From Shigella phage ESh26, in the sequence record ON528736: DNA of 64,000 nt; one strand, 5' to 3'. Of this stretch, positions 58,704 to 64,000 are shown piece by piece. Made by a program: the position numbers and the translations under genes. The notes under the pieces are model-generated. The model was given only the letters and a program-made list of their open reading frames with translations. It did no database searches and was not told where the DNA came from. Position 1 is the first letter of the stretch; every line of letters begins with the position of its first letter.

Positions 58704-58779
58704 TGGTCGAGGCAGTAGGGATCGAACCTACGACCTAGGACTTAGAAGGTCCTTGCTCTTCCTTCTGAGCTATGCCCCG
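58704..58779 (-). tRNA. tRNA-Arg (anticodon TCT)
   Basis: Manual cloverleaf: acceptor CGGGGCA/TGCCTCG, loop CTTCTAA, T-loop TTCGATC, encoded CCA. Confidence 0.85.
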
Positions 58780-58783
58780 TAAT

Positions 58784-58859
58784 TGGGGTGACCGATGGGG
58801 GTCGAACCCATGACTACGAGAATCACAATCTCGAGTTCTACCAACTGAACTACGGCCAC
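58784..58859 (-). tRNA. tRNA-His (anticodon GTG)
   Basis: Manual cloverleaf: acceptor GTGGCCG/CGGTCAC, loop TTGTGAT, discriminator C, encoded CCA; no G at -1. Confidence 0.75.
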
Positions 58860-58972
58860 ATTAATACCTACTCCAACAATCAAGATGTCTTCACACGAAA
58901 TTAAGAGAAGAGTGATCAGTTCAACCCTATAATCGCGTCAAGTAGATATTAATGTGACAGTTGTCACAAATT

Positions 58973-59047
58973 TGGCGGACGTGATAGGATTCGAACCTAT
59001 AACCAATCGCTTAACAGGCGATCGCTCTGCCATTGAGCTACACATCC
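58973..59047 (-). tRNA. tRNA-Asn (anticodon GTT)
   Basis: Manual cloverleaf: acceptor GGATGTG/CACGTCC, loop CTGTTAA, T-loop TTCGAAT, encoded CCA. Confidence 0.8.
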
Positions 59048-59051
59048 AAAT

Positions 59052-59138
59052 TGGTGGGGAGTGATGGAGTCGAACCACCCGAGTCGCAATGACAATGGAT
59101 TTACAGTCCACACCGCTACCTCTACGGGATAACTCCCC
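59052..59138 (-). tRNA. tRNA-Tyr (anticodon GTA), long variable arm
   Basis: 87 nt; acceptor GGGGAGT/ACTCCCC, loop CTGTAAA, T-loop TTCGACT, encoded CCA. Confidence 0.75.
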
Positions 59139-59151
59139 TTAATTCTTAATT

Positions 59152-59226
59152 TGGTGGCCCTGGGTGGAATTGAACCACCATCTGGCGATTATGAGTCGCT
59201 TGCTTGAACCTTCCAGCTACAGGGCC
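59152..59226 (-). tRNA. tRNA with anticodon CAT (Ile-lysidine type as in T4, or Met)
   Basis: Acceptor GGCCCTG/CAGGGCC, loop CTCATAA, T-loop TTCAATT, encoded CCA; position after tRNA-Thr. Confidence 0.75.
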
Positions 59227-59227
59227 T

Positions 59228-59303
59228 TGGTGCTGATTGACGGAATCGAACCGCCGACCTTCTCATTACAAGTGAGTTGCTCTACCTACTGAGCTAAATC
59301 AGC
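59228..59303 (-). tRNA. tRNA-Thr (anticodon TGT)
   Basis: GCTGATTTAGCTCAGTAGGTAGAGC...CTTGTAA...GGTTCGATTCC...CAATCAGCACCA. Confidence 0.9.
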
Positions 59304-59308
59304 AAAAC

Positions 59309-59398
59309 TGGCGGAGGCGATAGGATTTGAACCTATGAGTCGCCGGAGCGACTGCCGGTTTTCAAGACCGGTGCATTAAACCACTCTGCCACGCCTCC
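59309..59398 (-). tRNA. tRNA-Ser (anticodon TGA), long variable arm
   Basis: 90 nt; GGAGGCGTGGCAGAGTGG...CTTGAAA...GGTTCAAATCC...CGCCTCCGCCA. Confidence 0.9.
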
Positions 59399-59400
59399 AG

Positions 59401-59474
59401 TCTCCATACAAGGATTTGAACCTTGGACCTCCTGATCCCAAATCAGGCGCTCTACCAAACTGAGCTACACGGAG
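59401..59474 (-). tRNA. tRNA-Pro (anticodon TGG), CCA not encoded
   Basis: CTCCGTGTAGCTCAGTTTGGTAGAGC...TTTGGGA...GGTTCAAATCC; 2 nt from tRNA-Ser (dimeric precursor as in T4). Confidence 0.88.
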
Positions 59475-59484
59475 TAAATTAAAT

Positions 59485-59558
<74 letters not shown>

Positions 59559-59563
59559 AAATT

Positions 59564-59650
59564 TGGTGCGAGAAGTGGGACTCGAACCCACAAGGAAATC
59601 ATTCCGCAGCATTTTAAGTGCTGTGCCTTTACCAATTTGGCCATTCTCGC
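59564..59650 (-). tRNA. tRNA-Leu (anticodon TAA), long variable arm
   Basis: 87 nt; GCGAGAATGGCCAAATTGGTAAAGGC...CTTAAAA...GGGTTCGAGTCCC...CGCACCA. Confidence 0.9.
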
Positions 59651-59651
59651 G

Positions 59652-59724
59652 CTGGGAATAAAGGACTCGAACCTTTGCATCCTGGAATCAAAATCCAGTG
59701 CCTTACCAACTTGGCTAATTCCCA
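59652..59724 (-). tRNA. tRNA-Gln (anticodon TTG), CCA not fully encoded
   Basis: TGGGAATTAGCCAAGTTGG...TTTTGAT...GGTTCGAGTCC...ATTCCCAG; abuts tRNA-Leu. Confidence 0.88.
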
Positions 59725-60735: not shown

Positions 60736-60769
60736 TAATAGTATCACTACCCCATCTAAAAGTAAACTT
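60736..60769 (-). promoter_or_regulatory. early promoter
   Basis: gtaaac 60762-60767, atagta 60738-60743. Confidence 0.5.
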
Positions 60770-61001
60770 ATTTTTTACGAAAAATTGATTTATTTTCTGC
60801 TGCCCATTTTTCAATAACTGCAGCAGGACCAGTAACAACAATTTTATCACCGTAATCTTCTGCGGCGAGTTGACCGAAATTATCTAATGCATCACGAAGA
60901 ACTCCATAAGGCATTTCACCCATTTTATCTTTCTTGCCAGTGTAAATAAACTCAACTTTTACATCAGAAGATTCAGCGATAAACTCTTTGAAAGTTTTCA
61001 T
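60768..61001 (-). CDS. internal-protein-like small protein
   Basis: Start at MKTFKEFIAESSD (CTS-like); promoter 61034-61067. Confidence 0.55.
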   Translation of the reverse strand: MKTFKEFIAESSDVKVEFIYTGKKDKMGEMPYGVLRDALDNFGQLAAEDYGDKIVVTGPAAVIEKWAAENKSIFRKK

Positions 61002-61033
61002 TTTGATTTCCATTTGATTTTGTTTTGATAGGG

Positions 61034-61067
61034 TAATAGTATCACTACTAAAACCCTGTGTAAACAA
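61034..61067 (-). promoter_or_regulatory. early promoter upstream of IP-like gene
   Basis: gtaaac 61060-61065, atagta 61036-61041. Confidence 0.5.
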
Positions 61068-61077
61068 CTTTGTGAAA

Positions 61078-61335
61078 TTATTTTAAATCTTCTAATCGTT
61101 TCTTCATCTTAGAACCATTTTTAGCAATTTCTCCTGCATCGGAGCATAACGCTAAAAGTGCTTTAACTTTAGTTTGGTCTCCTTTAAAAGATGAAGGATC
61201 GACTGCAGCAGCAAGTTCTTTAATACGAGAGAAAAGACGCTCAGCTTCAGCTAAAGCCATTCCAAGCTTTACTTCCATACCGTGAGAAGATTCAGTGATA
61301 GTAGTTTTTGTAGCAAACTCTTTGAAAGTTTTCAT
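61078..61335 (-). CDS. internal-protein-like small protein (ipI position)
   Basis: 85 aa; MKTFKEFATKTT; promoter 61364-61397; adjacent to 57B. Confidence 0.55.
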   Translation of the reverse strand: MKTFKEFATKTTITESSHGMEVKLGMALAEAERLFSRIKELAAAVDPSSFKGDQTKVKALLALCSDAGEIAKNGSKMKKRLEDLK

Positions 61336-62104: not shown

Positions 62105-62105
<1 letters not shown>

Positions 62106-62818
62106 TATAGTACCTTTAGTGTATTTTTAATTTTAGAAAAAAGTTCTTCAAGAGAACCATCGTTTGTAATTACTAAATCGCCATCACGAATTGGCAATCC
62201 AGCTTCTGTAATATGTGTATCATTGGATTTTTGACCAGGACGAACTACATGAATTACTGTAGCACCCATCGCCCTAGCCGCATCCATTTCATGATCTTGA
62301 CGAGTATCAGGAACGATATAATAATCATAACCTGAGTTAAATTTATCAAGATAATCTAAAGCAAATAATTTTACCCAATACATGCGGTCGAAGTTATTAA
62401 CAATCAAATCCGTACCTAGGGCTTGCATCAGACGACGGACTGACCATTGATCTTCAATATTATTTATAACGTCAGCAATCTTGTTAAATGCTACGAAATT
62501 AACTGCGTCATCAAAAACAAACACACCTTTAATTGGGCTTTTACTATTAAGATAGCAAAATGCTTGTTCCATAATCGTAATTACTTCTAATTTAGTCAGA
62601 TTTAAATTAGTTTCACGATCATAGTCAATTCCTTCAAACTCTTTACGAGTTAAGCAAGGATAATCAGTGTTTGCTGCAAATACGCCCCATGCATAAGCCA
62701 ATGCATCCTTAATAGGACCAGCAAGTTGATATTTAACTGCAGAATAATTTTTCATGATAAAATCTGCAGTAGTATCTTTTCCACTACGCTTTACACCACT
62801 TAAAAAGATTAGTTTCAT
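62105..62818 (-). CDS. 1: deoxynucleoside monophosphate kinase gp1
   Basis: 237 aa; P-loop GVKRSGKDT. Confidence 0.9.
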
Positions 62819-62867
62819 ATGTTTCTCCTCAAATTTAGTTAAGATTATAACACATGAAACTGAAGCA

Positions 62868-63398
62868 TTAAACTTCTGCTATAATTTTGCCATCTTTTTC
62901 TACTTGAAAATACATATAAGGAATCGTTGCTGTGCATACTAAGGCTGGGTCTGAATCTTCCGTGTAGCTAAATTCTACTTCAGAGAGGTCAGAAACCCAA
63001 GGCTTATAAAAATTTATTGACATCACGATTTCAGTTTTACTATTATCTAAAATGTAAAGCGTAATGTATTCAGGACCTGTTTTTTGGGCAGTATTTTCGC
63101 CTGTAAGATAGTTACTAGTTCCTAGCATCCATTCATACATTCCTATCCACGACTTAAGCTCTTCATCAACTATAAATCTCACGATGAGTGGATCATACTC
63201 AAATGTAACTCCTGGACGCTGTGCTCGGCCTAGTCCAAACGGCCCAGTCACGGTATCAGTAACAGGTATCCTAATTCCTGGAATAGGAACTGACTGAGCA
63301 TTTAAAGTAAAAGCAGATGTAGTATTACTATGCGGTATTGATACTACAAAGTTAGTTGTATTTGCTTGGTTAAAAATTTGTTGTAGTGCTTGCGACAT
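62868..63398 (-). CDS. 3: tail completion / sheath stabiliser gp3
   Basis: Start at MSQALQQIFNQANTTNF (176 aa, GAGGAA RBS) rather than the 203-aa ORF start. Confidence 0.8.
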   Translation of the reverse strand: MSQALQQIFNQANTTNFVVSIPHSNTTSAFTLNAQSVPIPGIRIPVTDTVTGPFGLGRAQRPGVTFEYDPLIVRFIVDEELKSWIGMYEWMLGTSNYLTGENTAQKTGPEYITLYILDNSKTEIVMSINFYKPWVSDLSEVEFSYTEDSDPALVCTATIPYMYFQVEKDGKIIAEV

Positions 63399-63504
63399 AT
63401 ATTCCTCATAATGCTTCATAAATGTTGGTGGTATAATGGGTCTAAGTCCCTTCCATTCAATTCCAATTAGAACAAACAATAGAAAAGAATGGAAGATAAT
63501 AGAA

Positions 63505-64000
63505 TTAATTTATTAGACTTCTTAAACGAGCAGAAGTCATAAATGGAAATTTTTCTAAAGTTGGCTTTCGCCAATATCTTGGATGACAAGTTGATTTAAA
63601 ATCAAGAACAATTTTCTTTGCTTCATCAATAGTGTTAACTCCAAAGTTATCTAACATTATTTTCTTTTCTTTTTCCCACCGTTTATTAGCTAAAGCAGAT
63701 TGAAGCTTTTTGTTTTTAAATGTGTCATTTTTTCTAGAATGAGTTGTGCCTTGTGTCGGACTCCATCCTCTTCCTAAAATAAATCCCTCAGGAATTATAT
63801 CTCCATCATGTAATTTTATACATCTTTTACCATTATTATAATATTTTCGTCCAGTTTGTGTATTTGAAATATTATTTGCATGTTTTCTTTTTAACCAACC
63901 ATAAACTTTATTATTTCTCCTAACATATTTAGTTGAAACCGTCATTTTTATGGCTGCATAAGATAATTTTAAAGAATTTGGGTGTATTTTTACTAATAGC
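63505..64000 (-). CDS. homing-endonuclease-like protein, C-terminal DNA-binding part; frame open to window end
   Basis: Basic ORF with YYNNGKRCIKLHDGDIIPEGFILGRGW; no in-frame stop between ATG 63945 and position 64000. Confidence 0.4.
   Translation of the reverse strand, partial: LLVKIHPNSLKLSYAAIKMTVSTKYVRRNNKVYGWLKRKHANNISNTQTGRKYYNNGKRCIKLHDGDIIPEGFILGRGWSPTQGTTHSRKNDTFKNKKLQSALANKRWEKEKKIMLDNFGVNTIDEAKKIVLDFKSTCHPRYWRKPTLEKFPFMTSARLRSLIN

Follow-up and report, generated by a model that had tools for sequence, protein, structure and literature searches.

The gene 3 region and the reading frame at the window edge

We analyzed a stretch of 64,000 nucleotides from Shigella phage ESh26 (sequence record ON528736), referred to below as the window. 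It is a segment of a T4-like (Tequatrovirus) genome, and its end falls within a free-standing, Mob-type HNH homing endonuclease gene. The features next to that end are as follows:

62105..62818, minus strand: gene 1, dNMP kinase (Pfam PF21448, E = 5e-104)
62868..63398, minus strand: gene 3, tail completion/tail tube terminator protein, 176 aa (Pfam PF06841, E = 7e-12; RB32 and T4 annotation)
63399..63504, minus strand: spacer 5' of gene 3, 106 nt (alignment of T4, RB32, and KFS-EC3)
63505..64000, minus strand: 3' part of the endonuclease gene, 496 nt (codons 56–219 of 219, plus the stop)

The minus-strand frame at 63505–63999 is open for 164 codons, with its stop at 63505–63507 and none from there up to the window edge. 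Stops are abundant in the other two minus-strand frames of 63505–64000, and the chance of 164 open codons at the base composition of this segment is about 2e-6. The translated fragment has a pI of 10.4, with 35 Lys and Arg residues against 11 Asp and Glu residues. It contains the peptide YYNNGKRCIKLHDGDIIPEGFILGRGW, encoded at 63763–63843 on the minus strand and corresponding to residues 108–134 of the full-length protein. The first-pass annotation, made from the letters alone, had described a basic ORF with this motif and a frame without a stop from the ATG at 63945 to the window end. Both observations hold, the frame staying open through 63999. The listed ATG at 63945 is not the start of the gene. 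It is the internal Met74 of a 219-aa protein that is complete in near-identical phages, and the 146-aa ORF beginning there was listed because the frame runs off the window. For annotation, the 146-aa edge ORF that a gene caller would give is a truncation artefact. Placed from orthologues, the 5' 165 nt of the gene, including the HNH catalytic motif, lie beyond position 64000. The G+C content of the endonuclease segment (63505–64000) is 28.4%, vs 34.7% for the whole window, which, by comparison with the window average, is consistent with a foreign or selfish insert.

Elsewhere in the window, eleven tRNA genes lie at 58704–59724 on the minus strand (Arg, His, Asn, Tyr, Met(CAU), Thr, Ser, Pro, Gly, Leu, and Gln); T4 has eight. 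The CAU tRNA presumably corresponds in position to tRNA-Ile of T4. The His, Asn, and Tyr genes sit between the Arg and CAU tRNA genes, the interval at which T4 segB is placed (PMC2988022, Table 1). At 60768–61335, there are two small ORFs with an MKTFKEF… start, at the first residue in one and at an internal Met in the other; the two are 85 aa and, from a TTG start, 99 aa long. They occupy the place of the RB32 internal head proteins Ip5, Ip9, and Ip7 and of T4 ipI. This internal head protein region is hypervariable.

A Mob-family protein and its modules

All 164 residues encoded in the window are identical (100%) to residues 56–219 of RB32 ORF146c (YP_803088.1), which the RB32 annotation calls a "homing endonuclease," similar to mobB and not conserved from the T4 position. 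The RB32 and KFS-EC3 copies are complete at 660 nt and 219 aa. RB32 ORF146c and the copies in RB33, HY03, vB_EcoM_112, fPS-2, KFS-EC3, and other phages are the same gene at the same gene 2/3 position, and compared with them, the window shows the 3' three quarters only. At the DNA level, the 496 nt are 99.2–99.8% identical to 36 phage records. One base, at 63748, is private to the window; it is synonymous or near-synonymous and is absent in the five relatives compared, and a 36-nt pattern containing it had no match in viral_contigs or metagenome_contigs. The gp3 and gp1 proteins of the window have no exact-protein match on record, and the nearest phage record to the window is 97.7% identical over 8 kb. 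The gene itself is already known: its annotation as a mobB-like homing endonuclease dates back to 2006 for RB32, and dozens of later T4-like genomes have followed; some database entries call it a "hypothetical protein."

We then placed the protein by family searches. PHROG 655, "homing endonuclease," was matched by the window fragment (E = 1.4e-18) and by the full-length protein (E = 1e-58), and together with the complete identity to RB32 ORF146c over 164 aa, this bears out the earlier reading of the frame as homing-endonuclease-like. Pfam gave no family for the window fragment, and its HNH matches to the full-length orthologue were below the curated cut-offs (16.5 vs 21.4 bits and 17.8 vs 27.5). 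The protein search returned 2939 homologues, and an alignment of 46 of them is the source of all conservation figures given here. Pfam HNH was matched at E ≤ 0.01 in 30 of these 46. The HNH signature ERHHIIPKCLGGSNDASNLVDLTPEEHYVAH lies at residues 24–54 in RB32 and KFS-EC3, within the 55 N-terminal residues that fall outside the window, and residues H26, H27, N41, H50, and H54 are invariant in the 46 homologues. A catalytic domain had been suggested as possible beyond position 64000, and phages with 99–100% identical DNA do have this HNH motif there.

With the full-length orthologue as the query, BLASTP aligned T4 MobB (45% identity over 126 aa, E = 9e-30), MobE (62% over 63 aa, E = 1e-26), MobD (53% over 75 aa, E = 1e-22), MobC (34% over 134 aa, E = 1e-17), and the MobA remnant (E = 3e-6), and the T4 Mob alignments begin at residue 1. 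The window fragment by itself matched MobB, with its residues 1–59 corresponding to MobB 61–125 (35% over 68 columns, E = 3e-6). Judged by these alignments, the protein is homologous to MobA–E, which is one of the criteria for the Mob family. In a fold search, HNH domains were the top matches but weak ones, and the full-length protein had only a chance match among PDB sequences (E = 0.28). In our view, the gene is very likely a member of the T4 Mob family (HNH, His-Me finger), orthologous to RB32 ORF146c and located between gene 2 and gene 3 of a Tequatrovirus. For the ESh26 copy, we infer enzymatic activity, a target site, mobility, and an intact 5' part.

The motif YYNNGKRCIKLHDGDIIPEGFILGRGW had been likened in the first-pass annotation to the DNA-binding region of both GIY-YIG and HNH enzymes, with the suggestion to look for either domain beyond 64000. 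Made in orthologues, that check found HNH and no GIY-YIG. The gene could still be read as a GIY-YIG (Seg-type) endonuclease, or as a stand-alone DNA-binding protein with a module common to such enzymes; a likeness of the motif to Seg and Mob C-terminal regions had been suggested, and NUMOD3, which is also found in GIY-YIG enzymes, occurs in two of the aligned homologues. However, the orthologues start with the HNH motif and align to MobA–E from residue 1. Pfam and PHROGs give no GIY-YIG family for the protein, and Pfam has no model for the motif. A tblastn search with the 52-aa motif segment returned only HNH orthologues in T4-like phages and no Seg gene, and the likeness to GIY-YIG enzymes was not reproduced. 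For the orthologues, we reject the GIY-YIG (Seg) family because the orthologue N-terminus is HNH and no GIY-YIG match was found in either database, and we give this reading next to no chance.

To describe the architecture of the protein, we used an AlphaFold model made on the full-length orthologue (pLDDT 89). It predicts the following parts:

Residues 1–103: HNH beta-beta-alpha core plus helices, of which the window holds 56–103 only
63856..63999, minus strand: post-HNH helical part, residues 56–103, the last stretch in common with the T4 Mob proteins
63763..63843, minus strand: the YYNNGKRCIKLHDGDIIPEGFILGRGW part of a beta-hairpin module, residues about 106–131
63718..63762, minus strand: flexible basic linker, residues 135–149 (pLDDT <50)
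63508..63711, minus strand: four-helix C-terminal domain, lineage-specific, residues 152–219

The model helices at 47–60, 65–73, and 89–103 have pLDDT values over 90, and the hairpin strands are at 106–110 and 115–119. G105, P125, G127, and G131 are nearly invariant among the 46 homologues. The hairpin motif is conserved far outside the orthologue group and is duplicated in some homologues (P0028 and P0034), as would fit a modular "bead." Phage homing endonucleases have a "beads on a string" organization (PMC2988022), and the hairpin and modular layout fit it. The beta-hairpin module presumably contacts DNA, and the four-helix C-terminal domain is presumed to be a sequence-specific DNA-binding domain. 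Mob proteins have a common nuclease module and a C-terminal region of their own (PMC2988022), as our BLASTP alignments also indicate. Since only the nuclease module is common to them, most of what the window holds would be the presumed specificity part.

The gene 2/gene 3 junction: insertion, recoding, and decay

A Megablast search with 62800–64000 matched 504 T-even-type phage records, 36 of which cover at least 80% of the query. Genes 2 and 3 are adjacent in T4, T2, and RB3, and the first-pass annotation had this right for T4, where the two are separated by a 106-nt spacer. The window's 106-nt spacer is that same spacer, and the insertion reaches downstream as far as the point where the spacer starts. 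Alignment of T4, RB32, and KFS-EC3 places a cassette of ~660 bp exactly between the gene 2 stop and the intact spacer, and the gene is an insertion not just relative to T4, as had been proposed, but also relative to T2, RB3, and most Tequatrovirus genomes. The order of transcription is gene 2 (DNA end protector), endonuclease gene, gene 3. The earlier description placed the gene "after gene 3"; by transcription, it is upstream of gene 3 and downstream of gene 2. Within the spacer, the coding strand of the window reads TTTATGAAGC (C on the plus strand at 63417, 21 nt upstream of the gene 3 ATG), where KFS-EC3, RB32, and T4 read TTATAAAGC.

In carriers, the gene 2 stop and the endonuclease ATG share bases (ATGA) in the junction sequence GGAGCAATGTACGATGA. 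Gene 2 ends in GTT TGG AGC AAT GTA CGA TGA in carriers vs GTC TGG TCA AAT ATC TAA in T4. The change of the Ser codon from TCA to AGC yields GGAG, 9 nt upstream of the endonuclease ATG, which may act as the Shine-Dalgarno sequence of the endonuclease gene. Because of this overlap and the GGAG created by recoding, the gene appears to be expressed within the gene 2 message. The canonical T4 late promoter TATAAATA is absent from 62800–64000, and only matches with one mismatch were seen, inside coding sequence.

Beyond the window, a 7-bp stem-loop is predicted at endonuclease codons 13–19 in RB32, VR7, and X20. Its position is homologous to that of the internal terminator hairpin in T4 mobE (PMC2790892), but in RB32 no poly-U follows the stem-loop. 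Another RB32 hairpin begins with the start-codon G and might restrict translation.

The gene is found in ~37 of ~500 Tequatrovirus records with the gene 3–gene 2 region (~7%), and the 496 nt in the window are present at at least 99% identity in 36 phage records. A search of viral_contigs with gp3 returned three T4-like contigs, all with empty sites. The endonuclease gene is thus an intergenic insertion that is sporadic in close relatives, one of the criteria for a homing gene. Cassette identity is 99% or more in almost all carriers. Among six carriers, 12 of 660 nt segregate in the cassette, vs 47 of 1254 and 92 of 1412 in the flanks.

Next, we compared 7 carriers with 9 empty-site genomes. 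In these 16 genomes, all fixed differences form two patches (A and B) within the final 64 nt of gene 2, with no fixed difference in the other 1190 nt upstream, bar one alignment-edge artefact, or in 1400 nt downstream. Patch B comprises the final 19 nt of gene 2; all carriers fetched have it recoded, whereas none of the fetched empty-site genomes does, and end-to-end database matches to the carrier-form 89-nt stretch are all carriers or the remnant in phage CT01. Patch A lies 52–64 nt upstream of the gene 2 stop and reads CTCCAAAGCTTCTACTCC in carriers vs CTTCAGCAGTTCGTTTCA. The gp2 C-terminus is ...QSFYSKG...SNVR* in carriers vs ...QQFVSKG...SNI* in the empty type. In these comparisons, there is a linked flanking polymorphism of the kind associated with carrier-site immunity or co-conversion, which is another criterion for a homing gene.

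Patch A did not hold up as a fixed carrier difference. A database-wide search found it in 37 of 37 carriers but also in ~15 of ~467 empty sites, which means that it does not mark carriers strictly. These ~15 patch-A-only records, including FL12, vB_SsoM_113, and T4_ev151, form a third allele class with a T4-type gene 2 end, an empty junction, and a gp2 that reads …QSFYSKG…. They could be resistant empty sites, products of loss via recombination in a 29-nt identical stretch, or an older polymorphism.

Some copies of the gene are degenerate. Shigella phage CT01 has an in-frame internal deletion that leaves a 57-aa remnant, and in FL23 and FL44, the gene is split by a 1-nt deletion causing a frameshift. 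The downstream ORF of FL23 and FL44 starts at the ATG matching 63945. Such decayed copies are the products expected of a selfish endonuclease gene. In annotation, the CT01 and FL23 copies are a small trap, as degenerate copies are labeled "hypothetical protein" or are entered as a pair of "homing endonuclease" genes.

The ESh26 copy might itself be a decaying pseudogene, with a frameshift or deletion in its 5' part, so that only a DNA-binding remnant (e.g., 146 aa from Met74) or nothing would be made. The decay in FL23, FL44, and CT01, all close relatives, points that way, and the 5' 165 nt of the ESh26 copy fall outside the window. However, the FL23/FL44 deletion maps inside the range covered by the window, which does not have it, and the frame is open through 63999. 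The 164 visible codons encode residues identical to those of the intact RB32 protein, the cassettes of KFS-EC3, RB32, HY03, a51, and UKE3-1 are all intact at 660 nt, and most of the ~37 carriers are gap-free against the part in the window. We consider a pseudogene unlikely and favor an intact Mob-type gene in ESh26.

The gene is also found outside Tequatrovirus. VR7ORF161c (Gaprivervirus) and the homologue in Serratia phage X20 (Winklervirus) are full-length orthologues with ~59–63% amino acid identity, located at this gene 2/gene 3 junction too, and the start codon of each overlaps the gene 2 stop. Their sequences are diverged, and the spacers 5' of gene 3 are shorter than and unrelated to the window's. 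The VR7 and X20 gp2 C-termini (…AFYSKG…) resemble the carrier type at patch A.

Three genera have orthologues ~60% identical at this junction, each with its start overlapping gene 2 in the same way, which could reflect long vertical retention, and the carrier allele alters the gp2 C-terminus. Both points would suit a domesticated function, in which a site-specific nuclease or DNA-binding protein is kept by selection for phage competition or regulation and not by homing. Against this, the gene is in only ~7% of Tequatrovirus records and is absent from T4, T2, and RB3; where present it is near-invariant, and frameshifted or deleted copies occur in otherwise normal, complete phage genomes. Sporadic presence, near-invariance, and decayed copies make up the pattern of a dispensable, horizontally spreading element. 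Furthermore, marker exclusion is a normal outcome of homing anyway (PMC2988022). Domestication is, in our estimate, less probable still than decay of the ESh26 copy, and a homing gene that spreads horizontally remains our preferred reading.

Proposed homing and comparison with known endonucleases

By homology with MobE, intronless homing is the most likely mechanism. MobE, the experimental model, nicks T2 nrdB strand-specifically, and both this nick and the preferential, high-frequency inheritance of MobE are HNH-dependent (PMC2790892); MobA behaves like MobE (PMC2988022). For the gene described here, the setting would be a mixed infection with a phage lacking the endonuclease gene. The C-terminal modules would bind the empty allele at, or close to, the 3' end of gene 2 or its junction with gene 3, and the HNH domain would nick or cut the bound DNA. 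In the recombinational repair that follows, with the carrier genome as the template, the ~660-bp cassette would be copied along with the recoded last 19 nt of gene 2. Carriers would escape attack on their own site through the insertion and the recoded end of gene 2, and possibly through patch A. Our literature search on this gene, its locus tags, and the junction found no biochemical, genetic, or other specific study.

T4 MobE, located between nrdA and nrdB, has an N-terminal nuclease module that is 62% identical over 63 aa. Both genes are free-standing and rely on upstream transcription or overlap the upstream gene, and MobE and the orthologues have a stem-loop at the homologous early coding position (PMC2790892). 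MobE differs in its length of 141 aa, its short and different C-terminus, its nrdB target, and its place in the nrd region. Of the T4 Mob proteins, MobB, whose gene lies between alpha-gt and alpha-gt.2, aligns over the longest stretch (45% identity over residues 1–114), and GenBank annotators call the window's gene "mobB-like," but the C-terminal half of MobB is unrelated, and its gene is at another genomic site. The activity and target of MobB are listed as not determined (PMC2988022, Table 1). Because of the unrelated C-terminal halves and the different site, the window's gene is a paralogue of MobB and not mobB itself. Outside this family, we also considered I-HmuI (PDB 1U3E), the intron-encoded HNH nicking endonuclease of Bacillus phage SPO1. 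I-HmuI has a "beads on a string" plan like that of the window's protein, with HNH, small DNA-binding modules, and a helical C-terminal domain. It differs in being intron-encoded and in having other modules (NUMOD), and it was not recovered by sequence or fold searches with the window's protein family.

T-even phages are the classic home of such elements, and in that sense the finding is an ordinary one. MobE and MobA are the only Mob enzymes known to have a mapped target, and the recoded gene 2 3' end together with the three allele classes opens the way to mapping a third. It is possible, though we hold the idea only tentatively and think it more doubtful than not, that this Mob lineage is a gene 2/3 junction specialist that has moved between Tevenvirinae genera with the last 20–65 nt of gene 2. 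If so, its target would be predicted to lie in the last 65 nt of gene 2, and the C-terminus of the DNA-end protector gp2 would be rewritten by transfer. The ~15 patch-A-only empty-site genomes would be naturally resistant or post-loss alleles. Taken this way, the junction would show, resolved at the sequence level, the full cycle of a free-standing HNH endonuclease from invasion and fixation to decay and loss.
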